Of a stretch of 32,000 nucleotides of DNA, positions 1,665-32,000 are shown piece after piece (the stretch's first letter is position 1; every line of letters starts with the position of its first letter). Origin of the DNA: Chlamydiota bacterium (GTDB lineage: Bacteria > Auribacterota > JACPWU01); NCBI GenBank assembly GCA_016196885.1, contig JACPWU010000003.1:1-32000 (forward strand), read 5' to 3'. Made by a program: the position numbers and the translations under genes. The notes beneath the pieces are model-generated. The model ran no database searches. It was not told where the DNA came from and saw only the letters and a list, made by a program, of their open reading frames with translations.

Positions 1665-1693
1665 TTGAGAAAGTCGTAACTTGCTGCTATATT
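1665..1693 (+). promoter_or_regulatory. Candidate sigma70-like promoter for giant gene 1 (TTGAGA-N17-TATATT).
   Basis: The hexamers are at 1665-1670 and 1688-1693 with a 17-nt spacer. AGGA at 1701-1704 and the ATG at 1710 follow. This is motif matching only. Confidence 0.25.
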
Positions 1694-1709
1694 GATAATT
1701 AGGACGATT

Positions 1710-3330
1710 ATGTTTATTAAGAAACTGATTTCCATTATTACTTTAATCGCCTTTGGTACCCTGGATGAGGCTCTGTTGTGGGCCTCTATTTCGTCCAACC
1801 CCTTTAAAGTTGTAAGTCCTTCTCAAACAGTATGTTTCGATATATTTATTCCAAAGGATTTGGGCAGCGTTGTTGAGAAATACCAATCCCCCGGCTCGGA
1901 TCATACCGTGGTTCTCTTTCAGGACATTCACGCTAACAGTGAGGCTCAAAGGAGCACTTCTGAGCTTTTAGAATACCTTTCTCGCAAATATGGCTTAAGG
2001 CTGGTGGCCATGGAGGCCGCTTCAGGCAAGATTCCGACAGAGCTTTTTAAGGACTTCCCGGACAAGGAGGTGCTTCGGGAGGTGACGGATTTTTATGTGG
2101 GCTTGGGCCAAATGACAGGCGCTGAGTTTGCAGCTTTAAATGGAGCTAAAGACCTTGAGCTTTTTGGAATCGAGGACATGGATCTCTATGGAAAGAACTT
2201 TTCTGTTTATTTGGACACGCTCCTCTTAAGAAAAGAAATCAAGGAACAAATCTCTAAGATCAAACATTGGCTTTCGCTCTTGAAGGATTATATTTTTTCG
2301 CGCGACATGAATGATTTTGCACGTCAGTTTGAAGATTATTCACAGAATAAAATGGATCTTGAAAGGTTTGCTCCGGTTTTGGAGAAGTGGGTGGAAAAAT
2401 TAGAAGTAACCCCCCTAGCCCCCCTTAAAATAAGGGGGGGAAAACTCTCCATGAGGGGAGAAAATCCCTCCCCTCGTCATTCCGAGCCCTCTCCCCGTCA
2501 TTCTGAGGGAGTCGGGGCGACCGAAGAATCTCGTTTTTCTCATTTCCCCGAATTCTCAACCTATCTCAAAATTTTAGAGCTCAAGAAAAAAGTGGATTTC
2601 AAAAAGCTTCATGAGGAAATGGCGAAGCTTCTTATTTCCATGAGTGGAAAAGTGAGTGGGGAAGAGCTTGGAAAATTCTTAGAGAAGACATTGGCCTTTC
2701 GATTGAATGAGGTTTCGGATCGGGACTTTTATGAATTCGTCAAAAAGTTTTCTGAAGAACAGGGAACGGGAGTTGAAAAATATCCAGCCATTCAAAATTA
2801 CATGGCCTATCTGGAAGAGGACATGAAAGTGAATGACCTGCAACTCTTCGAAGAGGTTGAAAATCTCTCTTCTCAGACGCTTCTTTCGCAGTGCGAGACT
2901 CCGGAGCAAAAATCCCTTTGCGAATATATTTTTTACGCCGATCTCCTCAGCCGCGTTGCAGATTTTGGCGTGAAGCGTTCTGAATATGAGTCTTATCTCT
3001 CCAAGAAGAAAGAAAATATTTCCAAGATGATTCGGTTCATTCAAAAGAAGGCGGACACTTATTTTAGTGAGGGAACCGTTGGGAAAATAAAAGGGCATTT
3101 GGATCAGGAGTTATTGAAGCTTCAGGTCTACTATGAATTGGCTCTGAAGCGGGATCGTCAGATGGGTGTTCATGCACTTGAAAAATTAAAGTCCGCGGGC
3201 CCGGGGGTGAGTGCCTTGATCGTAGGAGGATTTCACACGGAAGGCATTGCCAAAATTTTGAAAGAGAGGGGTTATTCTTATTGGGTCGTGATCCCTCATG
3301 TTAAGGATATAACGGGTGACCATTATGAAG
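1710..3330 (+). other. N-terminal module shared by both giant proteins. A tentative fit is the Tiki/TraB/ChaN/EreA-like fold.
   Basis: VVLFQDIHANSEAQ...GLRLVAMEAASG...ALIVGGFHTEGIAKILKERGYSYWVVIP aligns with VILFQDVHAQREAQ...GLRLVGMEAASG...ALIAGGFHTQSLTQALKDAGYSYQVVIP in giant 2. The paired N-terminal xxH and C-terminal GGxH motifs recall that superfamily. I did not run an HMM. Confidence 0.35.
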
Positions 3331-6300
3331 AGGTGATGCTGAGTCAAAGGACATCCGCTTCTACCTTTTCTTCCGCTCAGGATGAAAGACCCCTCCCACG
3401 CGTTATTCGCAAGATGACTGAGGAATCCGGTTTTTTAAAAGGGAGTTCTCATGAAAATTTGGCTCCGCAGCCCATGCTCTCTCGACCTGGAGGTCCTGAG
3501 ACACTGGCCAGGCGTTTGAATATGGTTTTGGCTCGGGTAAGAGCTGCTCAACCGGTTGTGACGAGGGCCGTACGTCCACCCGAAGCGATTTTGAGTTCTT
3601 TGCTTTTGGCTTCTCTTGCGGAACTGATCGTCTATTTTGTGGCGGGGGGACAGCAGGGCGGTGGGATGGCAATGATTTTAATGGGGTGGCCACAGTGGTG
3701 GTCTAAGTGGTTTGGAAAAACAGTTTCCCAAACAGGTGCCCCCGAAGTTCTAGTCAGGGAAGTTCCCCCGGCTCCCTGGGAGGAGGGATCCCCGACTCCA
3801 GGGGTAGAGTCTCGCGGAGAGCCTCTAAAGGGGATTTCTCACGTTCCGTGGGAGGAGGTTCGAGGGGCTCCCTCTGATCTTTTTGAAACTTTCATGGCTC
3901 GACAGACGCGCCTTTCTCCAGAAGATCTCACTTCTTTTCGTGGAAGCGTTTTTGGAATGATCGAGAGCGCCATTGGGCAGGGTGATTTTCGAACGGCTAC
4001 CTCTATTCTCATAGAGATTCAATCTTTATCTCAAAGAGTTGTTCAACCTTTGGCGAAACCTTCTTTTGCTCAAGTATTGAATAAGGTTGCTTTAAGGAAG
4101 GCCTTTGCTGAGGGTTTAGCTTTGGGTGTTCAAGAGGCGATTAAAGCTAGAAACCCGCTTGTTATCAGGGAGGTGTACCAGACTCTTTCAGCGTTCTCTT
4201 CAGATGTTTCTTCTCTGGAAAGTATTCAGAATCAAATCATGGGGACTTTGAGGGGTCTTCTTCGGGATGCTTTTGAGGCGATTCAAACAGGAGATTTGGC
4301 TCGAGCCAGACAACAGATGTCTTTGTTTAATGGCATTTGGGATTTGTCTGTAACTTTTGAAAGGTCTGTTCGGGATAAACGGCAAAGGGAATTGAGCGAC
4401 GGAAGGGCAAGAGCAGAAAAAATCTTAAGGCTGTTACGCCCCGAAGAGGTGCCAGTCTATCAAGCATTTTATAAAGTTCTTCAGGTAGATAGAGGGACTC
4501 TTGGGAGAGACTACCCTCTGGCTCGGTTAGAAGGGCTGTATCAAAACTTGTCTTCCTCTTATCGGAGTCTGAGCCCTGAACTTCAGGGTTTACTGCGTCA
4601 TGATTTTGAAATGATGCAATCTTCCATTCAAGGAATCATTGTGATTAGGTTCAATGCTGCGAATGAATTATTGGAAAGGGAGGTCTATCGAATCAATCAA
4701 GGAGACAACATTGAAGTTGCTGAAATTTATAAGATGTTACATCACTTAAGCACTGTGTATGAACGGATTTTAGCGATGGGGGAGGTGATAAGGGATGTGC
4801 ATTATGAGGGAAGAATCATCGGGAAGACGGGAAAAGATTATGAAGAGAGAGAGATGTGGGCAGGGGATAGGGCAAGACAAAAATCGAAAGAAGTGCAGGA
4901 GGCAGCTCGGGAATCAAGGCTTCGCGTTCGTTTAGAGGGAGAGTTGAGGCCTGTGATTGATCCATCCTTAAGGCCTGGCTATGAAAGGGAATTGGAAGAG
5001 GAATTAGGGGGATCTGGCTTGGAGCCGGGAAGCCGAGAATACCATGTGCTTCAAAGAAGATTGAGAACCCGGTTGGAAGATCAGATGACCCGTGCTGTGT
5101 TGGAGACGGTAGGAGAAGTGCTAGAAGGGAAGGCTTCTCGAGAAAGAGAAGCTCGGGTGAGAGCTCTGATAGAGGGGCAAGATCAATCTCTTCAGAGGGA
5201 ACGTGCTCAAAATACGCTTACGGGCGCTCTTCAAAGGGCATTGGATGTTGTGAGCGAGCTCTATGTGAGAATGTATTCTTCTTCTCAGTTGTTAGAAATT
5301 TTTACACAGGCCTCTATCCCAGCGGATGTTTTAAGGGCTTACATTGATATTTTTAGACAGAGTATTTTAGGGAGAGATATTCATGAAATCATAGGCGAAG
5401 TGGCCCCGACCAATGAATCTTCTCGAAGTGAATTGCTGACGCAAGTGGATGGGTTGAGAAGGGGGTTCTTAGCCAAGTTATATCCTCAGGCAACGTTGGA
5501 TGTTCTTTGCATGACTTTGAGTCGTCTTGCCCAGAGAGAGGAAGAAATGCTTGAAGAACGTGCCCGCCTTGCGAGGGAGAGTCTATTGAGTCCCTCTCGT
5601 TTGGCGGCTATGCCGATGCCTTCTCTCGAAGAGCTGCTTCCCGGTTCTGAAATGATGGGGCAGGCCCTATCCCCTGAGGAAATGGCGGCGGCCGCCGCGT
5701 TAGTTCCTAGACTGTGGGAAAAAACAGGTGATTTGGGCCCAGAAGTTTCAACTTCTTTTCAAAGCCAGCCAGGAATGCCTCCTGAAGAAGTGTTGAGGGC
5801 AGATTTACCGGAGACATCAGAGACACCAGGTGCCCCCCCTGCCCCAGTAGATCTTTTATTGAAAGGGGAGGGTCTGTCATTGCCCCCTGAAGGAGAGACA
5901 GCTCGAGAGGGGTTTTTTGTCTCTCATATTCATGACGTCGTTGATTTGGGAGGGGTCCCTGATGTAATAATTCAGGCAGTCGCAACAGATATTCCTGCAC
6001 AAGGTGCTATTGTAGAAACTTTGGAAGCGGAAGAAGAAGCGGAAGAGGAAGGAGTGGACGAGCTAACAGAAGTGGTTCCACCCAGAGGTGCTGGACTGGC
6101 CGAAGCGGAAACAGAGAAAACGGTACTGATAGCAAGAGCCCCTTCTATTTCCATGCCCAATCTTGCTGAAAATTTGCAAGGTCGGGTTGAAGCACAGGAA
6201 GAGGGCGAACGGATTGATTTGGGAGAATTGTTAAAAGAGGAAGGTCTGCCAGAATTTAATGTTGCTGACATCTCCAAAAATCTTAAATTTGCTGAGGCTC

Positions 6301-9300
6301 AAAGTGCTTTAGATAGCTTTCGTTATGACCAAGCAGGTGCCTTTTTTGCAGAGTGGTTACTTTTGGGAGAAAGTTCTGAGGAAGTCTCTGAGATGGCCGG
6401 TCGTCTTTTGAGCCCCTTTCAATCTCTCTCTGGAGAAAATGGGACGACTGTTTGGAAAAGTTTTTGTGTTCAGCTTGTAGAGGGTTTAAATGAGGAGAAT
6501 ACCTCTCATAAGTTTCCCTGGGTTTTTCGTGCTTTATCTTCCCTAGATTCAAATTTCCCGGAGCGCTTGCAAGAGGCTGCTACAGAAAGTTCAGCTGTTT
6601 TTATTCTGGAGAAAATTCTTATTCGGAGGCTTTTGGATGTAGGACAAGATGGCCTCGATGCTGTTTGTAGAGGCGTCTTATCGGATATCCATTTACTGAC
6701 GGACGATGATTCCAAGAGATTTGTTTTGCAGGGGATTAAGGGAAACAGTCGAGTGATGGAAAAATTAGATCGGGCATTTTCTGCTAATTCATCTCTTGAA
6801 ATAAATAAACTTCTTGATCAGGTTCGTCTTCTTGATTTAGAAGAGGGGGATGTTTTAATTCCTGATTCGACTTCGCGGAGTGGTACGGGTGGCTCTTCTA
6901 ACCATTTTTCCCTTTCGAGCGTTTCTCCAGCCATCATTTTACTTGTTTTTGCACTTGCAGGGGTGATGGCATCTTTGGCCCGTCATTCATTTTCATCTGT
7001 TGAACCTCAGGCGGCTGGGATGTTGCTCTTTGCGGGTCCTTCCTTGCTTCTTTTGGGCCGGAGAATCGGCCCCTGGCTTGCCTCCCTTTCCGAGGCTCTT
7101 TGGCGTCGAATGGTGCGAGTGGATGGGGGTGGAGAAAGCCTTGTCGGGATGAATCAAGCGGCCTCCTTTTCTGACGGTCAGAATCTAGGGGTTTTTGATG
7201 GGATGAATGGGGCTGCCAGTCGGGCTGCAAGCGGGGCCATTTCTCATGCAATGGCTTCCTTGCCTCGGGATGCTTCTGAAGAAGACATTGAAGCAGGCTT
7301 GAAGGATGCGTATGCCCGCGCTAGTCTTCAATTCGGTGAGACGATGGCTGCGACGGCCCGGTTGTTCACGGATCGGTATGGGGTTCAAAGAGTTGCAGTC
7401 GCAAACGTGGGAGACACCCGCGCGTATTTGATTCGGGGGGGTAGGCTCCTTCGATTGATTGAAGAGGCCCCTGATCAGCCTTTGAGATTTAAACAAGAAG
7501 GAATGACAGGCGTTCCTCAAATCAGCATCCATGTTCTTCAGCCTGGGGATGTTCTCTTTCTTTCTTCTCCGGGCCTTCATCAGGGTCTTTCTGATGAAGA
7601 TATTCTAAAAATAGCTCAACGCCGTTTGAAAAGCTCCCATCTTTTGGCTCAGGAACTCGCTCGTAGCGCCTTCGTGCAGGTCTTAAAATCCCGGTACACT
7701 CAGGATCCAGAGATGCTGAGAAGGGTGATGGATCAGTATCAATGGAATTTTGCCCGAGCAAAGGACGATCAGAGACTGAGTTCTGCTGTTCAAGAGGGAA
7801 ATCCTGTTAGGGTACCTGATGTAACGGTGGAAGTCGTAACCTTCCCTGCGTTTGGTGGGTGGAAGCGATTTTTTACAGAATTTGTTTTGGGACTGAGACT
7901 TTATTTTCTCTCAAGGGATTCTCAAACCGCTCCCTCGCTAGAAGTGATTCAATCGGCCATCCGTTTGCTTCAAGTTTCGAACCTGCCCATGGTTCGGGGT
8001 TGGGCGGGGAATATCTTGTATCACATCTTGTCAACCAGAATGAAAAACATGCCTTCAAATATGAGACCTCTTCTGGGATTTTCTCAGTCCATGTTTGCAA
8101 TAAGCGGTTCTCTTCGTGATTCTGGGGTGTTATCAAAAATGCCTGAAGCGCCCAGGGAAGCCTTGGAGGACGTTCTTAACCGTTATGATGATGAAGTGAT
8201 GGAAAAAGTGAAGGGATTGAATCACCTAGGTGCTATTGAAGATCTTCTGCGGTTATTGGATGAGCGAAGGCAATATCCCTATCCATTAGAAAAAATTATT
8301 TCTTTTCTGCAATACCATTTACGAGAAGCAGCCTCTTTAACTTTTCGAGATGTCGGCCAGCAAATGAATCATGAGCTTTATTTACTGGGAGTTTGGGAGG
8401 AGCTTCATTCTGCGATTGCTTCAAATCCTCTTCTTCAAGTCTCGTCCACCGCAGCCTTTTTTAGGGAAGCCTATGCTCCACAAAGGGGAAAGTTAGTGGC
8501 TACTGTTGAACCTTTAGTGAAGGAAAGGCTGTCCGAGCTGGAAGGTTTGAGAGATCAGCTGAAAAATCGTGTGAGCGTAGAGAACTGGGATGCTGCGGGG
8601 GGTGTGTTAGAACAAGTTCAGGCTTTGCAATGTGCCATTCAAGCGATGAATCTTGCGACCTTGCTCCCTCCGTTGGCAGGCCGATGGGTAGAGGTTTCTC
8701 AAGTACTGGCGCAGTTGGAAAGGGTCGAGAACGAACTAGAGAACCTCCGTGGCCATTTGGAGGACGCTCGTGTCTATGTAGAGGGGAGAAATTGGCCAGA
8801 GGCTCAAAAATCGCTTGAAGCGGCGAGGCGTTTGGCAACAGACATTGAAGCGCTGAATTTGAACCATTTAATCCCTCGCGTTTATCAAGATTTGTCTCGA
8901 GAGATTGAGAATCATTTTAATCAGGTGCAAGAAGCAGAAGCAAAATTGACCGAGCTTGAAGCTTTGCTGACGCAAATAGAAGATCTTCTCAAAAGAGGAA
9001 AAACACAAGAAGGAAATGTTATGACTGTTGCTGAAGGTTTATTGGAGCAGGCTAAGCAGATAGAAAGGGGTTTGTCAAACAACGGTTTGGGGACCAGTAT
9101 TTCTGAGAGATTGATTTCTACCAGCGGACGTATCAGGAGGGCTGACAAAACTATTCGTATGGCTCATGAAACCTCTCTCCGCTCATCCGTTTCGGCTCAA
9201 TCTGCTACGGGGGTTGTGTCTAAAAGCGATCGAGAAGAAGCGTCGGAAGATTTAAAGCCAGTTCTGAAGGATATATTCTCTTTTGGGTTTAGGAATTTGA

Positions 9301-16384: not shown

Positions 16385-17930
16385 ATGAAGATGGTTAATT
16401 CTTTTTTAAAACGTGTGATTTCTTCCATTACTCTCCTGGCCTTTTTGTGTATGGATGAGGGGTCTCTTTTTGCGTCTACGCTTGCACCTCAAACTCATGT
16501 GACTGACGTCCCTTTGCAACTTTCATCTGATATTTTTATCCCCAAAGAATTGGCAAGTGTGGTGGAGAAATATGAGGCTTTGGGGGCTCATCATACTGTG
16601 ATTCTCTTTCAGGATGTTCATGCCCAAAGAGAGGCTCAGAAAAGTTCGGCGGCGACCCTGGATTATTTAGCTCAAAAATATGGATTACGCTTGGTAGGCA
16701 TGGAAGCTGCCTCGGGAGCCGTGGACGTGGCGTCTTTTAGAGATTTTCGGGATAAGAATATTCTAAAGAATGTAACAGAAAAATATCTGGGTCGGGGAGA
16801 GCTTTCAGGGGCTGAGTTTCAGGCGATCAATGGGGCGCAAACCTTTGAGCTTTACGGGATTGAAAATCTTGAAGCCTACCTTAAGAATTATCATGCCTAT
16901 AGAGATTCTTTTGCCTTACGTCAAGAGCTGAAGGAAAAAATTCAGGGCTTAAAAGATTTTCTTTCTCGCATTCAAGAGTATGTTTATTCCTCAAGCGTTC
17001 AGGCCTTTGCCAAGAAATTTCAGGATTATGGAGAGCATAAAATTAATTTGGAAAAATTTATTCCTTTTTTAATGAGCGAGGCCCAAAACGCTGGGGTTCG
17101 TTCAGACTCTTCATCGTTATTAACTTTGTATTTGAAAGTTCTAGACGCTAAAAAGAAAGTAGATTTTAAAGCCCTTCACGACGAAATGGCCCAGCTTCTC
17201 GTTTCCCTGCAAGGTAAGGTAGATGAAGACGAGCTCTCCAAATTCTTAGAACTCACGTTGACTTATCGGCTGAATGAGATCTCGCCTTTAGAATTTTATC
17301 AAACAGTTAAAAGATTGATGGATAACTCACGACTCACGACACACGACTCACAACTGCCTTATCCCAACATTCAGCATTACATGGAATACCTAGAACTGGA
17401 TTTGCAGGTAAATGATTTGCGCCTGTTTGATGAGATTCGGTCTTTGAGTGAAAAAGTTTTGATTGCCAAGTGCCAAACTGATGAAGAAAAGCTTTTGTGT
17501 CGTTATGAGATGTTTGTGAGCATGCTCACACGGGTAGCCGATTTAGCTCTTTCCAAGTCTGAATATGCAACTTATGTTGCCGGTCACGGAAAATTAATTC
17601 CAGAGATGATTCATTTTATTCGCAAAGAGGCGGATGAGTATTTGATGGATCAAAATCTAGAAGCATTGAACTATCCCTTTGAAGAAAAGCTTTCAAAGGT
17701 TGAGACCTATTATCAAGCGGCTTTGGAGAGAGATGAAGAAATGAAAGCGCGTTTGATAGATCGCCTGAAAAATGAAAAGAGCGAAGTGAGTGCCCTTATC
17801 GCCGGAGGTTTTCATACGCAAAGCCTGACTCAGGCGCTTAAAGATGCAGGCTATTCTTATCAGGTGGTGATTCCCACTTTTGATGCAACGAAACCCGATC
17901 ATTATCAAGATGTGATGATGGGGAAAAAGA
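16385..17930 (+). other. N-terminal module paralogous to 1710-3330.
   Basis: See the alignment blocks listed for 1710-3330. By eye, roughly half of the residues are identical across the conserved blocks. Confidence 0.7.
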
Positions 17931-20900
17931 CCCCGTTTGAAAAGTGGCTGTATGACAATGTCATACAGCTAACTCCCCCTACCCCTCTTACTTTAAGAGG
18001 GGAGAAAAACACGGATGTTCATTTCGAAGTGAGCGGGGGAAGAGGCCGCGTCAGCAATCGAAGTTTTCTGACAAAGGGTGCATCTCATGTCACGCGCGAC
18101 GGGCTCTTGATGACACCTTCCATGCTCGTTCGATATGGGGATGAAGAGGTTGATGCTCAAGGATATCTTCGAGAATTGTGTATGCACTTAGAGATGTTGG
18201 CAGGTTTAATCAAAGCCCGTTTCACAGACGAGGGAGAAGCGCTTGATCTAGAACGCTTGAGAAGCGATTTAGCTTTTTCTTCCCCCTCTTCCGAAAGTCT
18301 CGTATTCCCCTCCCTTGATGGGAGGGGTAAGGGGAGGGTGGTCTCAAATCCTCCCCCTAATTTAAGTTCATCCTCTTCTTCCCCCTCTAATTTAAGTTCA
18401 TCCTCTTTTTCCCCCCTTAATTTAAGGGGGGCTAGGGGGGTTATTCACCCTTTAGCTATCCTCGACTTCACTCACCTTAGCCTACGCACAAGTGGAGCAT
18501 CAAGACAAATCCTCGTCCCCATCAGAAATTCTAATCGTGTCCTTGTTCTGGATCCTGCTGGATTTATTGTAGAAGAGAATGGAGATTTTAAGGGGCTGGC
18601 GGTGGAGCTTTTAACGCAATTGAAGTCGCGCATTTTTAGACGAAGATCAGCCGTTTTAGGTCTAGGCCTTTTGGGGCTTATTGCGGTGAATGTGGTTCGA
18701 GCCGAGGGGTTGCCGTCGGCTCCTCCTTCCGGAACAGTGCAAAAGATAGGTGGGGAATCGGAAGGAGCTGCTGATCAACTGGTAAATGAGAGAGCTGATC
18801 TGGCTAAAATTGAGCGAATCCTTCGTGCAACTGGACTGAAACAAAGTGATTATGATTCTGCGATATCCAAGCTTAGGGATTTAGTTAACAATCATTCTGA
18901 AATCATTACTGCTTCAACATTAGATGCTCTTTTAAGCATGCCCCCGGATGTGTTGAAAAAAACTGATTCTCCATATTTCACAGAGTTTTTTAAAAATATC
19001 CTTCAGCGTAGACAAGATTTTGCGAATGAAGCTCTCCTTCAGAAACTTCTCTCCAATTATGATAAAGGTCTGAATGAGAAAAAAGTGGAAGAAGAACCTT
19101 ATTTAGAAGTTGATATTCGGAGCATGTGGGCCTATACGATTCATATTTTAGGGGAGATAAAACCTGATTTGATTGTGGACGGGACGCTGCCCTATTTTAT
19201 GAAATCTATACCGCCCTCTGTTTTAGGGAGTGGTTTTGTTCAGAGACAATTTTATTTCAGTCCTGCTTTTACCCGTCTTACTGAAAATAGGTCCGATGAA
19301 GTTAAATATTCTTTGTCGCTTTCGGCCTACTTATTTTTAACACGGGGAGGCTACCCCTTGAATGAAAACAATATCGAAAAGATGGTTCAATTTTTGATTG
19401 AGAAACGCGAGAGAATGGCTGAGGATGTTGTTCTAGGCCCAGCACACACGGTCATTGGTGTGGTCAACAACACAGTAGGGGCGGGCGCAGAATATGTTAT
19501 AGAAAATCTTGCAGGTTGGGCAAAGGTCCCCCATAACTCAGTTCATTCTTTTCGCGTAAGTCCTTTGTGGTGGGATTTAATTTCAACTAAAATGTGGCTT
19601 GCCAATCAAATTATTAAAAATCAGGGCCCGCTCTTTGTAAATCTTTATTTTCATGGGAATGATCATGAATTGGAGGTGGGTGTTTATGAGGGGCTCTTGG
19701 GTGGCGTGAAAGCCGTCTATTTGACAGACCAGGAATTAGCTGAGGCCTTAAAGGCAAGGGAGAAAAGTGGCAAAAGAGTGGATGAGGTTGTCTTTTTTTT
19801 AAATGCCTGCGAAGGGCGTTTTGGTGCAAATTTAGAAATGGATCTCTCTCGTTTAGGGGTGAAAACATATCCCAAGATATTGCAAGCGGCTCATTATGAC
19901 TCTTTTGCTTCATCGGGTGTTTTTTCTGTTCCCTTTCATGAAATCAGTGTGAAGCATCCAGATATTGATGGTTTGAAAGTCAAATATGTTTATGAGGCAG
20001 CAGAATATGCTTTTCAACAGGGAGAAGATTATTTATTCCTTGTCTCCGTTCCTGAAGCGGATGTTGATAGATTAAAAGCTTCTTTAACGCAAGATCCTGT
20101 CCCTGCGTCCTCTGTTACATTACCCTTTTTCCCTACGGTACCACCGGCTCTTCCTGACGGTGTCATTGAACTAGGTTCTCTGGTTTTACCCTCGGTTAAA
20201 TCCACTCCTACTCAGACGACAAGCCTCGCCTCCAGAATTTCCAGTCCCCTAGGTATGGCCCTTCTTTCTCAACCCCTCATTCTACTTCTAACCACTTTGC
20301 CTGCGGCGGCAAGAGGGCTTGGAGAGGGAATTTTCAAAGATGGAAGTTTTATGACATCTCTTTCGCCTCTGGAGATTTTCCTTTCCTGGTGGCCGCTTGT
20401 TATTTTGGGTGGCTCTATAGGAGCGGTGATGTTTTACCGATATTACCGTCCCCAATTAAAAGAGATTTCTGAACGTGTTGGCAGGTGGAAGAGTCAACTC
20501 ACATTTGGATCGCCATTAGCAGATCTCGGAAAATGTGTCACAGCGGACACCCTGTTGCCAATCTTGAGAAAGCGAGGGGCTATAGGTTTGGATCTGGGAG
20601 AAAAAGAAGAGACTGAACTGTATTATTCAGAAGTCATCCCGATCGTCCAAGTCCGTTCTGGCGATTATGTCTATTCTCTCAATGAAGGCACGGGCCAGGT
20701 TGAGCCTCATCGCATTGTGGGACTCCTCGATATGGGGATTAAGCCCGTGTTTAAGCTTACGACTGAGAGCGGTAGAAGCATCAAGACGACAGCGAATCAT
20801 CCTTATTTAAAGAAGTTAGGGGCTGAGGGCTGGGGGCTGGGGGCAAAAAATAAGTTAGGGGCTGGAAGATCGAATCAGGTAGATACCGCGCGGGATCATT

Positions 20901-23900
20901 TTTTACACTTGAGAGAGCAAACGGAAGTATTCCGCCCGCGAGATACTGGCAACTTTCAGATTGTTCAAGATGATAAAGACGGGAATGGCCTTGTAGCGTG
21001 GAATGACCAGAGGACGAAGTGTGCCTGGCTTTGTATAAATCCTGTGATCCCCTTCTTCTCGGGAGAGCTGAAATCCAGCCCGTTCGAAGACACGGCAGAG
21101 CACTTGATAGGAAATAGGTGTGATTTTAGAATACATGTGGACGCATCAGAGAGCGACCTGACTATGTTCAGTGACGATCAGGGGAGGCGCGATCCATTCT
21201 TTTCTGGAAGAATCTTTCTCTATGAATCCATCTTCACGGAGAATATCCTCAAGGGTGCCCATGCGTTTGCTTTCCTCGAGGAAAAGTCTGACGGCTTCCT
21301 TGCCTCTTTCCCTGGCTTCGTCCACGCTATCCCCGCAACTGGTGACAGAAAGCTCAGGGCAAAAGCTAACGTAGGTCTTCCCCTCTTTAAACACCAGCAA
21401 AGTGAAATCAAGTCTCATCATGGATCCATTGTAGCACACCCTTCTGAGAAAATAAAACGCCAAAGTAGAAGGATCAAGACGACAGCAAATCATCCGTATC
21501 TTAATAAAATGGATCGTGGATCGTGGATTCTGGATTGTGTCTCTACGTATTTTCCATCATCCATCATCCATCATCCATCATCCTTTTCAAAGTGGACCAA
21601 AGTCAGCGCTCTTCAGGTGGGCGATGAGATTGCGGTGTCCAAAGAAAAATTACCTTCTTCGATAAGCGTCCTCTCGAGCGTCAACGCCATCAATGATAAT
21701 TTTTGCGAATTCAATGTAAAAGAGAATGCGATATTTACCGAATTTGGAAGTCACTCAAACATCCTCTGGGACCCCATTGTCTCCATTGAGTCAGTGGGTT
21801 TTGAGCATGTCTACGATATTGAAGTAGAGGGGACGCATAATTTTGTTGGAAATGGAATTTTTGCACATAATACGGCGATATTCGCAACCCCCACCCCACA
21901 GACCCTAAGCCAGGCAACGAGCAATATTGTGGGTGAAAAACTTTTGGATGAATTTGAGAAGTTAAATGGGGATAGGCCTCTTCAAGAAATTTCTATTTCT
22001 GAAAAATCGGGTCAAGTGCTTGAACCGTTAAGACAAGCTTTAGAGGGACATGAGGATGCCAAGTACATGATGGTTCGCATCGATGTTGAACTTTCACAAG
22101 GGGTGGTTAATCATGTCATCGTTATAGATACCGTAGAAAACTTGCGAAGGGATGTTTTGCAGTTGACCCAAGGTTCTCTTGATCTAGCCCGCATTTCTCA
22201 TCACATTTCTGCTGCGAGTGCCAATTCTGCCTCGTCTGCGTCGTCAGACTCGGTCGGCCACGCTCAACATATTGCAAAGTATGCCTCGCATGGCCTCGGT
22301 CGTCTTCCTCGCATCCAAGGCAGACCTGACGCTCTCGCGACGAAATCTGATGAGAAATGCGGGCTAGAAGGTTTTGAGTTTATTCTCAATTACAGCGAGC
22401 ATGGAGCGAGGGAAGAACAAGGTGTTGGAGAAACTTTGGTGTTCTTGCATAACATAACGCTGGGCACGTCTGGACAGTCTCTTCTGCGTGGACGAGGTCT
22501 GATGTCGAGTGTCATTTCTCAGTGGGCACGGTATTTGGCTGAGTCAACGTTGAGTGGTAGACTCACCTTGGCCACCGATGCAAAACATCCAGCCACCATC
22601 TCTTTATTTAAAAAACATTTTCTTGCGCATGCGCCCTCTGATCTTGAGAAAATAAGTTTGAAAGACCGTTTTAAAGTGGATGTTGAATACACCACTGTTC
22701 ATCCCTTGTTTGGAAGTTTACCCATTGGTCTTCGTGACGCGCAACGTCCAGTGAAGATTAAATCGCTGGGAGAAATTAAATTAGTTAATGGGACTTATGA
22801 AGTGGAAATTCCTTCTGGGGTGCTTCCAGAAAATCAGGAGGGAAGGATTGTTACTGAAATCAATGAAACCTTAAGAGATGTTTCTGATTGGCTCAAGCAA
22901 TCCACCCTGTCTCGAATTTCAGGTTTTCGTATGCCTGAAACTTTAGACTTAAGTGTGGCAAGTTTTTTTGAAAGTTTAGCGGGTTCAACACCCGAGCGTG
23001 GAGAACAAAGGGCGGGTCTTATTTTGGCTCGAGAGCTTTTAGCGATTCAAGATCCTCAAGGAAGAAGGCAGTTGATGCGTCTTGCGATTCTTCACGAGTT
23101 AGCTAGCTTGATTTGGCCTTCATTGATATGGCCCGAGCATAGGAGAGGCCGCTCAGGCGATATTTTAATGGAGGTAGATGCGCATTATCTTGCAGACATG
23201 ATGTCCGGTGAGAGTGGTGACGCATCTATTCAAGCGATTCATGGAGTTCTTTCATCCTATGCTGAAGGACAAACGATTGTACGGGACCGTGTCTATGCCT
23301 CAAAAAATCCCATTGATGTGGCGATTTACGATTATTATCAATTTACACAGTTGGTGAGGGAGTTTCGAAGTCAAATCATTTCAAATCAACCTGTTCCAGA
23401 ATTAATCAGTTATGCGCGTTTCATGACCTCACGTCGTAAAGATATGGATGCCAGATCCGTGGTGGACGAGCGGGTAGAGAGAATTAAGACGGGTCAGAAT
23501 CTTTCCTCCGATGATCCCTCTCGAATTAAAGATCGCTTGAATGCACTGGTTCGTGAGCTAGAGTCGGATGATGCATTGGCCTTGTTAGACAGAAAACTTG
23601 AGGTGGGAGATGATGTGGTCAATTTCTATTGGCGGGGGACAGGCGATGAGGAAACGATAGGGTTGAAACAGGCTAATGATGAAATATGGGGATATGGTTT
23701 AACCAATCAATTGATCAGTGTGGTACAGAAAGGTGCTTTGACGCTCATGGAGGAGAGTGGGCTCGTAGAGCTCACCCTAGAGACAGATGATAAAGGTGTG
23801 CTTCATATCAAAAACGGCAGAGACTTGATTCGAAAAAATTATAAATCTACTGTTTTTCGTGTTGCGCAAGATCGCAGGGTTGGAGATTATGAATTGAGAT

Positions 23901-26900
23901 TAGGAAATATACAACTTCAGTTAAACGATGCACTCAATCGCTATGTGCGAGGGGAGGAAACAGCTCTTTTAGGTAAGCCTGATGAAGCGATTGTAAGTCG
24001 CTTCCATCAAAGTGTTCGCGATCCTAAGAAGAAAATTCAAATTGATTTTGGAATAGGGACCGTTCGTGGCGGAGATTTAAGATCCAAGGTGGAAGCCGAC
24101 TCCGAAGCGATTAAAGCCGCGATTATGGCGCATCACAGTGAAGCAAGAAGATTTGATCAGGAGACGTTCGAAGCGGGTATTGAAGAAGCTGTAAAAATTA
24201 AGAATATTTTGATAGAGGCACGGTTTTCTCTTTTTACAGCTTCAGGTGAACTTGATTCAGACACGTTTGATCATTTAAGGAAGTGGGAAAAGTTTGAAAA
24301 ATCTCAGCATGATACTTGGAGTGGAGTTCTTGGTCAATCCTCCATGACGTTGACTGATGTCCAGAGTTCCGTTTCAGAGGGAATGAGCTACCCAGAATTT
24401 CTTGAATCGAGAAACGCATCGGGATTATTGCAAAACCATTTGCTTCGGAAACTTTATCATTATCATTTGGCCAAGCACTTTTTTGAGTGGGTAGGGATTG
24501 TAGATTATATTAAAGAGTGGCAGAGTGATGCATTAAAGGCACAAGAGAGATCTCGACAGGTAAATGACGCTTTGAAGTACATTCAGGAAAATCGCTCTGA
24601 ATATGAAAAGATTATTGGAAAATTATCTGAAGGAGTTCCATCCCTCGAAACCCATGAAGCGTCTTTACGAGAGAGTATGGAAGAAAAGATTCGTTTAGCT
24701 CAAAGCCTTCTTTCCTCCGATCGAAAAATTCCCGGGTGTACCTCCAGAAGAGTTTTTGACGCTCGGGCGTTTAGCCATTCAGAAAAAGGAATGGTTTTTA
24801 TCAATTTGGATGTGAAAGGCATGGGGCGGGAGAACTTTAAGGATTTTCTGAAGCGTGTAGAGAAAATTCATGAACTGATTCAACAGAAGAAATCAAATCC
24901 TTCCCTGACAGAGACAGTCAATGAGCAAATTCTCTCCCAGACATTGATTGCAGGGGATACGGTCACAGAAAATTTTGTTAAAGTTGGGAAAAAGGCAGTG
25001 GGTGTGATAGCAGAGCGATTAAAAGAGAGGCCAGATTTATTGAATCAAATGGGAATTTTCTTAAATTCCGATGGTTCTATTGATGAAGAAAAGACCTTAA
25101 ACTTGGTTGAAGTGGGCGGCGATGAACTGACGTTTGCGATTCCCCAAGAGGCTCTTCAATTGATTGGAGAAGAGGGCCTTTCTCAGATTCAAGTTGAGGC
25201 GGGCACGCGAATGATGGTGAGTCCCGTGGAAAAGGAAAGAGTAGATCGTCGAGACGAGGTTAATTACGGATTGGCAATTGCAAAGCTTGATGAGGGAACA
25301 GCCTTGGCAAAAGAGTTGGAGGCGCTTGGATTTAAGGATTTTTTTGTCCGACGTCTTTTTGATGAGACAACTAAAGAATATTTCTGGAAGGCTTTTTTTA
25401 GAAATGCCGAAGGGAATATTGAAGAACGTGAAATGGGTTGGAGGCCTGACATGGCTCGAGGAGATGTGGGACATGGAATGCTTGCCATGAGACCCTACCA
25501 GATCACACGATTTCAGGAGCATCTTCGATCTCCTCGGACGCCGATGTTTGATGCAGCTCAATATCTTAAAGGGCTTCTCTCTGATTCAGGTTACTCAAGC
25601 TCGGTTGTGTCTCTTTCTTCCGAAGATTTTCGTTCGTTGATGATGGAAATAGAAAATGGAATTTTTCAGGCGGGTTACTTTGTCCCTGGTTTTGATTTTG
25701 GGGATGAAGATAGGCTTAGGCAGTTGAAATCTTTAAAGAGCGAAGTTGTGAGAGTACGGGGCGTGAATAGAAATCTCCCTCCTGAAGGGGTTGAGGTTAA
25801 AAATATAGAAGCTGCCATAGATCAATTGGTGAATGACATTGTCCAACACCCTGAAGTTAACCTGCTTATTATTACCGGTGTTCCCGGTGCTGGGAAAGGC
25901 GTATTTTCAAAAGCATTAAGACAAAGACTTGAATCGACACTACAATCAATAGGCTCAGATAGAACAGTTCAATTAATCGAGCGAGATAAATGTTTTAGTC
26001 CTTCCGGTGGATGGTATCGTGCAGAAGAGGAATATGATCCAGACACGATTTATGATGTGGAAGGACCCGTGTTTGCTGGGGAAATGATAGAAGAGTTTAG
26101 AACTCACATGGTCAATGGGGTTCCTCCGCTTCGAGCTGAACAAATTCGAAGAATTGGCATTTTTGCTCCCATCGATCAAATTCGCGGCCAATTGGCAGAG
26201 CGCGGTCGTACCTTAGAAGTAGACCATACAACGGATGTACAACTTGCGGCCGAACTTGACACCCGTTTCGATTATTGGTACTTCGGCGAGGATTTTTCGA
26301 AATATACTCTCATGGTAGATAATACCAGAGCCTCTGGATCGACAGGCGAAAGTGGACATGAAGGGGGGTCAGGGGCAGAGACCCTGGGTGAGACCCTCTC
26401 GAGAGGTATCCCCACTGAAACCGTGGCCGGCGCGCATCCGGTGAGTACGCCTCAAAACCGAGGAGCGAGTTCCAAACTTAATTTGTCGGCTTCTACCCCC
26501 GCCATTCCTAAAGAGGCGCGTCACGGCAAACCAGGCAAAGAACCTCAAAAAGGTTTTGCCATGATAGAAACCTTTGTTCGGGCTCTTTCGGGTGGAAGCG
26601 CTGTGATGTTTTTTGTTTTTCTAGGCTGCTTTGGTTCTGCGTTATCTGTCTTGGTTGGTGGAAGAAGTAATATGCCTACAAATACCAATATTGAGGATAT
26701 CACCTTTCAAAACCGAGGAGCGAGTTCCAAACGAGGATCTATCAGTCTTGATGAGAGAGGAGGGGTCAGACCCTTAACACGCACAACGACAATCGGACGA
26801 TTGGGTTCACGCTCATGGCTGAATCTGGCCAATGCCATACTCTCTTTGTTATATTCAGGGTTGTCTTCGATTTGGAAGACGATCAATGCCTCATTCGGCA

Positions 26901-29900
26901 CTTTTCCAGCCAATTTGTCGTCACTCAACATGAGTTTACTCCACTCTGTCGTAAGTTCTATGGTCTTGTGGGTAAAGCTCTCTTCACGCATCATAATTCA
27001 TCCGCTCCTTAATGTATCGGTCTCGGTAGAGGCGCCAGTTGATTTTAAGATCTTGTTCAGCAATCGTCAGGGCTTCGTTCAAGTCAACCAACCCCATGGG
27101 CGTTTTTTCGACGGCACGGCCAGGCCGGTACAGGTCACGATGGGCGAAATCGTGCGCCGTGTCATAACGAACGATTGGCTCCCAACCGTTCCCACTCCAA
27201 TACTCCAATTGTACCACAAATTCCACGACTTGCTTTCCAAATCGCTGGTGCCAATGTCTCAATCGGCAATCCCTGGGCAAGAGGTCGACCACGAAGCTGC
27301 GAATCTGAGCCATCCGCTAAGTCTATCGCATGCCCCAGGATATGTCAATGAGGCCGGGCGAGATCTATTGACTTCCACTTCCACCAAAGCCGCGGGCGGG
27401 ACACATCCTCTTTCTTCAAACAGAGTCACCGAAATTTTGGGCAAGATGAAGGAAAGGGGAATTCAAGGACGGGTGATCGCCAGAGATGATTCTCGCTTTA
27501 AGGGCATCGAATCTAAAACGGATGATTTCTTAAGACCTTTAGGTCTTGCAGGTGAAGGAAACAAAGGCTTGGAAAGCATGACGGTTTTTGACGAGGTGGA
27601 TTTGTCTTACACCTCGACGGATGGAACCGAAGTGCATGTGAGCCTCAAGAAAGGCGATTCTGTTTTCACAGTGACAGAGACCCAAAAGGGAGAATCTCGA
27701 ACGACCCAAATCGTTGCTTTTAGAGATGATGAAGGCGGCGTTTATACAACAGCAAGATTTTGGGATCAAGCGTCTGACGAGGCTTGGGTCGAGCTCTGTG
27801 TTCATGAAATCAGCGAAGTCAATGCGAAGACGAACCAGAAAATTATTTCTGCGCTTAATCAAATTCAAGTGGATTCCACGGGTCCCGATGCTCGAGTCGA
27901 GTTTTTTAAGCGATTTTATGTTTCTCTAACAATTCAAAACAATCAGATCACGAGTCTTAAATCTTCTAATGAATCCGATCCGGCTCACGTTCTAGCTGAG
28001 TTTCTGGAGGTGGTCAGGACGTTACAAGTTTTGAGGCAACCCATCACGACAGAAAATGTATTAAGGACGGTCAGCGTTTTGGATCAGAATATAGGAGGCC
28101 TGTCTCAAGGTTTGTCTAAAAATCCTCTTGTGGGACAAGAGCCTACCCATCGGTTTTCAAATTCGAATGCAGAGTTTGTTGATTCAGAGAAGTTGAAGAG
28201 ATTAAGAGGATTGGCGGAACTCTTTTATGAGGCTTATACAGATGCTTTTGAAGCCAATAGACTGAGTCAGGGTGAAGCCAAGTGGACCGAAAAGGATATC
28301 TTCATTACAGATCCGCTCACGAATCAAAAAATGACCATTCAGGATCTTGAAAATATTGAACTTCAATTAAGCGTTGGAGAAAAGAAAACAGAGGCTATTC
28401 AAGGAGAATATCGTCCCTATAGAAGACGCATTGCTAATCTTAAAGGTGTTAAACGTTTAAGTCTCCAAGATGCTTATGGTCCCATGCTTAGAAAAGTTCA
28501 ATCAGAGTTAAGTCAGGGTAAGCAATCTGTGGTTTTGCGCATTGGAGGACGAAGTGGCACCGGCAAAACAAGTATTGCGGATGAGATGGGTAAGTGGGGA
28601 CTGGGCCCTATTTTACCATCAGAAATTTCTGTCTTGCATGCGGATGATTTAGTTGGTTTTGACTCTATGCGGCTTGCTGTTGAGGTCGAGAAGAAAAAGG
28701 GAAAGAAGTTGATTATTTTAGAGGGAACTTATTCATTGCGTGGGAGAGAAATGATTTTTGAAGAGAATGCTCCTGAAATAGAAGCGGACGTTCAAGTTTT
28801 TGTGGAATTACACGAAGATACCCGCGTTCAGCGTCTTTTTGAGAGAGCTCATTTTCGTGATAGATCCTGGATTGCCTATATGGATCGAGTGATCAAGGAT
28901 CGAGAGGATATTCTTCGGGTTGCAAGCAGATACTTGCCTGAGTCCTTAGAAAAAAGGATTGTGGATACAGTCCAACAGGTAGATGGAGAAAAAAATGTTG
29001 CAAAGGCAGGTGGGTATTATAAAGCTGCAAAGAAACTACTCTTAGAACATCTTTTAGCTGTTAGAACACAAGGTGCAAACTCGATGTTTGATTTTGCGAG
29101 AGTAGAAAATCTAATCGATCGCTATACCATTGATCAGGAACGAAGAACAGCGGACATTATTATCAAAAATGATCAGTATAATACCGGATTAGGTGTTCTT
29201 GCTGACAATCAAAGCCTCATTTTTAGAGACTCTTTGAAGCGACTTTCCAGTTTACTTCCTTCAATACAGAAAAATAAAGATGAGATTGTGACCCTTATCA
29301 TCACACTTGTTAGAGATTTTTCAAGCAACCCTATCATTTTAGGAATAGAAGACTTGTTTCAACAAGAAGGCACGACACAAAGACTTACAACAATGAAAAC
29401 AGATCCATTAAGGAAATGGGTAGAAAAATTCTTAATTTTACCTGCTCATGTTTCTCAGCTCTCAAGGTTGGTAAGAACCAGCTTAAGAGAGACCTCTCGA
29501 AATCCCAGCTTTCTCCACTCTACCCTGGGCGATAAGCCTAGAGATGAGGTGAAGCGATGGATTGATCAAAATGCTGACTTCGTAGAGCGATATGCTCCCA
29601 TCAGGCGCGGCTTGTCACAATTTATGCGCCGTTATTCTTTGGGTGCTGCGAATATATTGGGTGGCTTAAGTGTGGGTTTCTCAAGAGAGACGTGGTATCG
29701 AATTTTTGCGATTGGGTTTGTGGGATCTTTGATCAGTGGGATGGCCGCATTTGTTTTATCTCTTTCTTCAGATCGACTTGGCTTTGCAATATTGTCAGGT
29801 CTTGCGATCACTTTATTAACCTCAGTTGTTGTAGATGATATGGCCATGAGTTTTGCAGAGGCACATTATGTAGTAACGAGTGAGAATTATTTGGCAGGAA

Positions 29901-32000: not shown

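Follow-up and report, generated by a model that had tools for sequence, protein, structure and literature searches.

The 32,000-nucleotide (nt) stretch analysed here (positions 1 to 32,000 of contig JACPWU010000003.1, referred to as the window) carries two giant genes in tandem, the second of which, Giant 2, runs past its end. Giant 2 is judged rather likely to encode a membrane-tethered multi-enzyme chain of the type described for Omnitrophota, from a gene that tolerates and accumulates selfish DNA inserted in frame, with an intein removing one of these inserts at the protein level. The chief new element is the presence of intact antisense operons within the open reading frame (ORF), one of them lodged at the endonuclease site of the intein. 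These embedded operons, an intein in such a protein and the family defined by the N-terminal head module were found neither in two preprints on Omnitrophota giants (bioRxiv 10.1101/2023.11.21.568195; bioRxiv 10.64898/2026.06.07.730766), in both of which inteins have 0 occurrences and which were not searched for nested antisense genes, nor in literature searches. The architecture itself is an instance of this recently described and still unexplained class of giants, and several of the motif-based labels given to Giant 2 are unproven.

Plus-strand frame 2 is stop-free from nt 16370 to 31999 (5,210 codons, with ATG codons at 16385 and 16391), and a 15.6-kb open frame at 45% GC cannot be the product of chance. 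When 1.84 billion representative proteins were searched exhaustively with HMMER, the full product was retrieved as P0010, a protein of 6,014 amino acids (aa) starting with MVNSF at nt 16391, which places the end of the ORF ~2.4 kb past the window. The original prediction, made from the letters of the window, had read the frame as many catalytic modules alternating with membrane segments; this general reading was right and matches the published architecture of Omnitrophota giants. All of its motif coordinates proved exact when checked in the sequence (the His of YFHGN at 19652, the Cys of LNACEG at 19808, RGRG at 22486, GGDEL at 25115, GVPGAGKG at 25877, GRSGTGKT at 28544 and HEFGH at 31103), and a Kyte-Doolittle scan revealed hydrophobic 19-mers at every position where it had placed a transmembrane (TM) segment. 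As estimated from residue frequencies, ~0.2 HExxH and ~0.2 Walker A motifs are expected by chance per 5,200 residues, so that several of the motifs could be random and independent support is required, which was found to be uneven.

Four genes with start and stop codons intact lie antisense to Giant 2, in two pairs (Table 1), and the Giant 2 frame is open through all of them. The hicB-like gene is located 10 nt upstream of hicA on the same strand, which is the layout of a HicAB operon, and a TACAAT hexamer stands 7 nt before its ATG. The DUF7718 and DUF5647 genes overlap by 11 nt and therefore form an operon, which may be toxin-antitoxin-like; the TTGACA-17-TAGACT element in front of it is the best sigma-70-like match across the 7 kb scanned (20500-27600). 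The triplets TTA, CTA and TCA are read as stops on the plus strand when a gene lies in the codon-aligned antisense phase. These triplets make up 4.2% of the codons in the giants and number zero in the three antisense genes that occupy this phase. Resampling of synonymous codons gave probabilities of an open plus-strand frame of 0.037, 0.015, 0.042 and 0.086 for the four genes, with a joint value of ~2e-6. The identity and the integrity of the antisense genes, as well as the improbability of the open frame across them, are thus matters of observation, and the nested operons would be expressed from the minus strand.

Codon usage points to the origin of these segments. Clean 100-codon windows of Giant 2 served as the reference, with a mean of 0.27 log2 units per codon, a standard deviation of 0.07 and a minimum of 0.115; the plus frame at the two inserts scored 0.04 and -0.03, which is 3-4 standard deviations below the rest of Giant 2. 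Since these values lie below every clean window, the inserts are foreign DNA that is read through, not native domains. The long inter-domain stretches that the original prediction had found devoid of recognisable motifs are explained in part, as the antisense translation of inserted operons and as palindromic repeats. Next to the DUF7718-DUF5647 operon, the second copy of a 26-nt exact direct repeat (26707-26732) contains the last seven codons and the stop of DUF5647, while the 229 nt between the two copies encode the hydrophobic segment 26573-26656; its host-like codon usage (0.20) indicates that this segment may be a genuine TM helix. No Pfam match was obtained for the other antisense ORFs tested in Giant 2, no homologues of hicA, hicB, DUF7718, DUF5647 or the intein were present at the loci of three homologues of the head module, and literature searches retrieved nothing on DUF5647, on DUF7718 or on toxin-antitoxin genes inside inteins. 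By eye, the antisense ORFs of Giant 1 look like ordinary shadow ORFs.

The intein proposed by the original prediction was fully borne out, with profiles above cut-off, a complete set of catalytic positions and a DnaB-type Hint fold. Pfam Intein_splicing (PF14890) scored 66.7 bits against a cut-off of 35.8, TIGR01443 scored 36.6 against 15.6 and TIGR01445 scored 24.9 against 24.5. The element opens with Cys1 at 20534 and closes with FAHN, its terminal Asn at 21871 being followed by Thr. In the AlphaFold2 model the N-terminal part reached a predicted local distance difference test (pLDDT) score of 75-90 and the C-terminal part 74-92, with the insert between them at ~30. In alignments that span the whole 446 residues, Foldseek matched this fold to the Ssp and Npu DnaB mini-inteins with probability 1.0 and a target-normalised TM-score of 0.80-0.87.

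The site after block B is a conserved nesting site of homing endonuclease domains (PMC6801210). The insert of the Giant 2 intein directly follows block B and hence occupies this canonical position, which is uninterrupted in insert-free related inteins (TTANHPYLTKxGWxKV..L..GD.IAV). No Pfam match of any kind, and thus none to a LAGLIDADG or HNH homing endonuclease (typical of inteins but not obligatory), was found at E 10 in the 226-aa insert; judged from its sequence, the size of the intein is due to the antisense hicBA insert and not to an endonuclease. Scanning with Rfam and for tRNAs, over the window as a whole and over the intein region, gave no matches, so the insert is no known intron or ribozyme. 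The insertion is bounded by a duplication of block B: the two 43-bp repeats are spaced by 693 bp (3 x 231, that is 231 codons), both encode IKTTANHPYL, and the four nucleotide differences between them in the 10 core codons are all synonymous. A perfect 14-nt tandem duplication (TCCATCATCCATCA) also occurs in the intein at 21553-21580, within an extra stretch of ~25 aa that separates the WTKV strand from the second copy of block B.

The nearest relatives of the intein (P0013, P0016, P0017 and P0020) reside in repeat-rich, surface-type proteins of the Patescibacteria type with exteins of the form GNVGIGTT..KLHV.G. They sometimes occur in tandem, 20-80 aa apart, and the site after block B is again occupied by inserts, which vary and are unrelated. 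Two of these inserts contain a GGIEPP or EAPG-type peptide, which by eye looked like translated structured-RNA DNA. In one related Parcubacteria intein, the variable insert contained no antisense ORF. The Giant 2 intein shares with the class 1 DnaB mini-inteins (Ssp and Npu; PDB 1mi8 and 4o1r) the Cys1 residue, the T-x-x-H of block B, the terminal His-Asn, the +1 nucleophile, the Hint fold and the placement of extra DNA at the canonical endonuclease site. It differs from them in that it lies in a linker of a membrane protein, an opposite-strand hicBA replaces the sense-strand endonuclease, and a duplication of block B flanks the insert.

[quoted passage not shown] Giant 2 would be translated into a single chain that inserts into the membrane, after which the intein would excise itself and remove the 231 meaningless residues opposite hicBA, leaving the predicted junction ...FGSPLADLGK-TAIFATPTPQTL... 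(SPLADLGK-TAIFATPTPQ). The other insertions would stay as tolerated linkers, and the enzyme modules would work as a tethered array. Such an array would consist of cargo behind the head: a candidate clan CD His/Cys module, a GGDEF-like palm, three small P-loop kinase-like modules, HExxH modules and a low-molecular-weight (LMW) phosphatase-like module past the window, with ~10 predicted TM helices separating them. A peptide spanning the spliced junction would provide a direct proteomic handle on the synthesis of giants as one chain.

More tentatively, giant genes and the intein endonuclease site may act as safe harbours for intact antisense operons of the toxin-antitoxin type, with both strands under selection. 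The result would be a three-layered selfish nest (a toxin-antitoxin operon in an intein in a giant gene), the nonsense peptide of which is spliced out, and the addiction module may stabilise the intein in place of an endonuclease. If both strands are expressed, the locus would constitute a clear natural case of long antisense dual coding at the same locus in bacteria and a new way for an intein to persist. It would also serve as a warning that part of the 'dark' sequence of giants, possibly including some 'TM helices', may be translated selfish DNA.

In-frame insertion is not restricted to the operons. A 186-nt near-perfect palindrome with the terminal repeat CTAGCCCGCATTTCTCATCA interrupts the middle of the region labelled GNAT-like, and a related copy is found in the intergenic sequence upstream of Giant 1 (1481-1647, with a partial copy at 1557-1647). 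A smaller palindromic repeat (CCCCCCTTAA..AAGGGGGG) recurs in opposite orientation in Giant 1 (2407-2444), where it lies within a 41-aa in-frame insert of the head module (nt 2409-2531) that is absent from eight of eight other head modules. For Rickettsia palindromic elements (RPEs) and intragenic MITEs, in-frame insertion into genes is known and implies no function (PMC10969869). The palindromes of the giants resemble RPEs in adding peptide while keeping the ORF and in having copies that are intergenic and in both orientations. They belong to another phylum and have other repeat sequences, their hosts are giant genes, and entire antisense operons are tolerated here in the same way.

The first 600 residues of Giant 2 and Giant 1 are 40% identical (E 8e-133), and the N-terminal module (~500-550 aa) recurs at the N-terminus of nine other proteins (E 2e-43 to 1.5e-15), all of those with a source name coming from Candidatus Omnitrophica or Omnitrophota. 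Across 9-11 sequences the invariant residues are D-x-H, Q, E, E, R and GGFH, and the AlphaFold2 model (pLDDT 87) displayed a confident alpha/beta core with a large helical insert. The Pfam content downstream of this module differs among the nine homologues (Fic; SecA-DEAD; Pkinase plus Metallophos; AMP-binding; or none), which defines a constant head with variable cargo. The Pfam profile PF04187 (ChaN, Tiki superfamily) covers the R...GGFH part in two members at a sub-threshold E of 0.003-0.006, and the head is probably a member of the Tiki/TraB/ChaN superfamily. A conserved Tiki/ChaN-like head with swappable cargo is a new element in its own right and offers a handle for cataloguing giants and for asking about their targeting. 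The genes of the homologues sit among housekeeping genes, one of them immediately following another giant gene, of more than 3,384 aa.

The two P-loop modules, previously read as kinase-like, hold as sub-threshold profile matches. The PDB matches of module 1 extend to the Walker A level only, and a paralogue with 33% identity (GIPGSGKT...YWYLAEDFSQY) is present near the C-terminus, past the window. Module 2 matched the NCBIfam uridine kinase PRK05480 over profile positions 100-166 (E 3.5e-4, ~20 bits against a cut-off of 180), PRK06547 over the complementary positions 6-61 (E 1e-3) and Pfam PRK at E 0.31. The Udk-like label is accordingly retained in the sense of a generic P-loop nucleoside/nucleotide-kinase-like module and dropped in the sense of a uridine kinase or PRK family member. 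Residues ~5200-6014, past the window, hold a second HExxx motif (HEFGx), the P-loop 1 paralogue and an LMW-phosphatase-like CX5R motif (CRANIFRS), for which the LMWPc profile fell slightly short of its cut-off (E 8.6e-4).

For the GGDEL and HEFGH regions, a single distant homologue each was retrieved, P0011 (E 1.5e-4) and P0012 (E 3.1e-4), respectively. P0011 retains D-x-x-x-M-G-x-x-N, AGD, VGGDELTF and KLD-GTA-AKELEALG, whereas no Pfam profile (E 10) or PDB profile matched, so that the palm read by the original prediction is a candidate with a conserved motif and no profile match. A chimeric AlphaFold2 query joined the intein, the His/Cys module, the palm and the HEFGH module, with an 11-row alignment in which the homologous rows covered the intein only. 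Confident folding was confined to the intein and a portion of the palm, and GGDE was placed at the turn of a beta-hairpin (pLDDT 82-91), as in GGDEF domains; the spacing from the Asp to GGDE is ~100 aa, versus ~45 in a GGDEF palm. P0012 shares HExxHN, a downstream E and ARAQL, while the zincin call found no profile match even at E 10 and the region was modelled as all-helical (pLDDT 40-74). The GNAT-like call was not sustained, as no Pfam match appeared at E 10 with the palindromic insert kept or removed. As a GNAT acetyltransferase candidate the region is unsupported: RGRGLM is off the G-x-G/A spacing of motif A (R/Q-x-x-G-x-G/A), and no Acetyltransf match was obtained.

The His/Cys module is the cargo on which an alternative view of the whole protein turns. 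The original prediction had called it a peptidase; the dyad stands at the predicted sites and has the His-Gly ... Ala-Cys order of clan CD, and peptidase identity is suggested by two weak, concordant legumain matches. These two, Pfam Peptidase_C13 (E 0.17) and the PDB legumain 9va4 (E 1.1), were the only matches in all searches and both fall on the catalytic stretch. The clan CD assignment is suggestive and its matches are not significant; the AlphaFold2 model of the region was uninformative (pLDDT 30-50), and no homologue was found in the 1.84 billion representative proteins. Among the intein, the Udk-like kinase and the peptidase, profile and structure searches thus endorsed the first in full and the second as a generic P-loop kinase-like module, and left the third a candidate.

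On the alternative view, Giant 2 would be an autoprocessed polyprotein or multi-effector resembling a toxin of the MARTX (multifunctional autoprocessing repeats-in-toxin) type: an exported or inserted precursor cut between its modules by an internal clan CD protease, possibly with contributions from the HExxH modules and Hint cleavage, whose released kinase, phosphatase and cyclase-like effectors would act on a host or prey. In MARTX toxins, a cysteine protease domain that carries out autoprocessing accompanies several effector domains (PMC6315884); Giant 2, too, is a giant single chain of unrelated candidate effector enzymes and may contain an internal protease of clan CD. The legumain matches over the catalytic stretch, the constant head with differing cargo (as in polymorphic toxins), the eukaryote-like kinase and PP2C domains in Giant 1 and the description of Omnitrophota as host-dependent or predatory (including 10.1101/2023.11.21.568195) would all fit. 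Cleavage of the Omnitrophota giants is left open in both preprints, proteolytic cleavage being proposed by West-Roberts et al. (10.1101/2023.11.21.568195). However, the protease match falls short of significance and its model is poor, and the ~10 interspersed TM helices favour retention in the membrane of the producer over delivery. The window showed no RTX-type repeats, no secretion signal and no neighbouring secretion genes (including a type I secretion context), and the intein has the full splicing set (His-Asn and Thr+1) instead of the signature of a cleavage-only Hint or bacterial intein-like domain. A MARTX-like precursor is therefore considered unlikely.

Compared with the published Omnitrophota giants, each encoded by a single ORF and combining a signal peptide and numerous TM helices with unrelated, very divergent enzyme domains, GGDEF and AAA among them (bioRxiv 10.1101/2023.11.21.568195; bioRxiv 10.64898/2026.06.07.730766), Giant 2 agrees in its one very long ORF, N-terminal signal/anchor, many predicted TM segments, unrelated and divergent candidate enzyme domains, large unannotated stretches and tandem giant genes. 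Its family, in contrast, is defined by the Tiki/ChaN-like head, which is not described in those papers. The term 'Archaeovorin' sensu West-Roberts (at least 30,000 aa, SecA-DEAD, numerous TM helices) was tried and rejected: TM helices are present, whereas size and SecA fail. Giant 2 fits only the broader class of long multi-enzyme proteins with a signal peptide and TM helices.

Several observations weigh against the favoured account of a tethered chain with selfish inserts. Giant 2 has 6,014 aa against the >30,000 aa of the published core set, and SecA-DEAD, C39/S8 peptidase and dockerin domains were not detected in profile scans that included its C-terminal part. Five of the seven catalytic calls have no significant profile or structure support. 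The relation of the head to Tiki/ChaN is graded no higher than probable because the PF04187 match is sub-threshold and Foldseek against the PDB was not significant, with the erythromycin esterase EreC at rank 42 (E 1.6). The location of the intein, in a low-complexity linker and not in a conserved catalytic site, is atypical of inteins, and the duplication of block B leaves its ability to splice uncertain. Read in their own frames, the nested genes do not have host-like codon usage either. Moreover, the account rests on one metagenome-assembled contig, and no close orthologue of Giant 2 was found in any searched collection, which precludes an empty-site comparison and a conservation test for most modules. 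In these searches the C-terminal 1,211 aa had no match in a word-indexed protein database, the C-terminal peptide retrieved no relatives among genome, metagenome and viral contigs, scans of contigs with the head-module alignment yielded no loci, and a phage megablast gave no match. Exact-product look-ups for Giant 1, hicA and full-length Giant 2 found none on record.

Some of the same observations could be turned into a different account of the nested genes, in which they are non-functional relics evolving as linker after frame-breaking insertions were purged, or in which Giant 2 itself is decaying and no longer one protein. Either reading would sit well with the weak codon-usage scores that the nested genes have in their own frames, the sub-threshold HicB-like match, the lack of any gene with exactly these products on record in the collection searched, and the in-frame MITE insertions known to occur without function (PMC10969869). 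Yet all four ORFs are intact from start to stop, two of them keep an 11-nt overlap, and DUF7718 matches profile positions 7-102 of 104 at 110 bits. In addition, -10-like or AAGGAG elements stand just upstream of starts, the absence of TTA, CTA and TCA from the three aligned genes fits a constraint on two strands, and a Giant 2 in decay is incompatible with a frame that stays open over 15.6 kb at 45% GC. Relics or decay are accordingly regarded as very unlikely. An assembly artefact, in which the metagenome assembler would have created the inserts as chimeras at short repeats, would suit a metagenome-derived contig with direct repeats flanking or adjoining both cassettes, but can be dismissed as extremely improbable, given that the 43-bp repeats (86% identical, with short exact runs) are a poor substrate for graph collapse, that a chimera would not be expected to yield inserts in multiples of three with a stop-free frame four times over (~2e-6), and that Logan assembly SRR12113387, in which Giant 2 is not covered, holds the adjacent HEPN gene with an identical product.

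Table 1. Positions (nt of the window), strand and supporting evidence of the features of Giant 2, its inserts and Giant 1.
Feature	Position	Strand	Basis
Giant 1, tandem paralogue by head module; cargo Ser/Thr kinase and two PP2C/SpoIIE phosphatase domains	1692..15335	+	Profile matches, head-module identity
Giant 2 ORF, cut by the window; database start 16391	16385..32000	+	Open frame and P0010 match
Signal/anchor-like hydrophobic segment, N-terminal; conserved in Giant 1	16415..16471	+	Kyte-Doolittle
Family-defining N-terminal (head) module, small alpha/beta core with large helical insert	16502..17959	+	Homology, invariant columns, AlphaFold2
Small palindromic repeat of C6-TTAA-G6 type, in frame	18406..18443	.	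Sequence comparison
Predicted TM segment	18647..18703	+	Kyte-Doolittle
His/Cys module (H 19652, C 19808), candidate clan CD caspase/legumain-like peptidase	19457..20149	+	Weak matches
Predicted TM pair just 5' of the intein	20255..20311 and 20375..20431	+	Kyte-Doolittle
Class 1 intein, 446 aa: Cys1, block B TTANHPYL twice, terminal His-Asn, Thr +1	20534..21871	+	Profiles, AlphaFold2, Foldseek
Direct repeat copy 1, encodes block B	20772..20814	+	43 bp
hicA toxin gene, in intein insert, codon-aligned antisense phase	20903..21136	-	Pfam HicA_toxin, 35.8 bits against 27, E 8.6e-9
hicB-like antitoxin gene, upstream of hicA; alternative ATG 21493	21146..21421	-	Pfam HicB_lk_antitox, E 0.008, sub-threshold
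Direct repeat copy 2	21465..21507	+	43 bp, 86% identical to copy 1
GNAT-like region by motif only (RGRG at 22486), unsupported	22022..22729	+	Motif
186-nt near-perfect palindrome, MITE/RPE-like, in frame as 62 codons	22183..22368	.	Hairpin -94.7 kcal/mol, z -8.3
GGDEF-like/palm-like candidate (LDVKGMGREN, AGD, VGGDELTF)	24737..25399	+	Distant homologue, AlphaFold2 hairpin
P-loop module 1 (GVPGAGKG)	25787..26374	+	KTI12 and AAA_18 at E ~1e-3
26-nt exact direct repeat	26452..26477 and 26707..26732	+	Sequence self-comparison
Strongly hydrophobic segment	26573..26656	+	Kyte-Doolittle
DUF5647 gene; AAGGAG upstream of ATG	26707..26997	-	Pfam, 49.6 bits against 27, E 3.5e-13
DUF7718 gene	26987..27316	-	Pfam, 109.9 bits against 25, E 6.9e-32, profile 7-102 of 104
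Promoter-like TTGACA-17-TAGACT directly upstream of DUF7718	27320..27348	-	Consensus match only
P-loop module 2, Udk/PRK-like (GRSGTGKT ... LIILEG ... RVQRLFER)	28472..29149	+	Sub-threshold profiles
Four predicted TM segments, bundle	29702..30130	+	Kyte-Doolittle
HEFGH module, zincin-like candidate	30737..31564	+	Distant homologue
Predicted TM segment	31592..31648	+	Kyte-Doolittle

The surroundings of the two giants hold several further features. A sequence of ~60 nt (81% identical) precedes both giant genes, at 1245-1302 and 16252-16314, and may be a regulatory element common to the two. A toxin-antitoxin pair of a nucleotidyltransferase (MNT) and a HepT/HEPN protein is encoded directly upstream of Giant 1, at 403-1198 on the plus strand, the HEPN product being identical in the second assembly. 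Between the giants, the minus strand of 15507-16119 holds an ORF for a retropepsin-like aspartyl protease (Pfam Asp_protease_2, E 6.6e-7) and, overlapping it and upstream on that strand, an 85-aa ORF with no family match. The start of the contig (185-386) carries three overlapping copies of a direct repeat of ~70 nt that are 78-88% identical.

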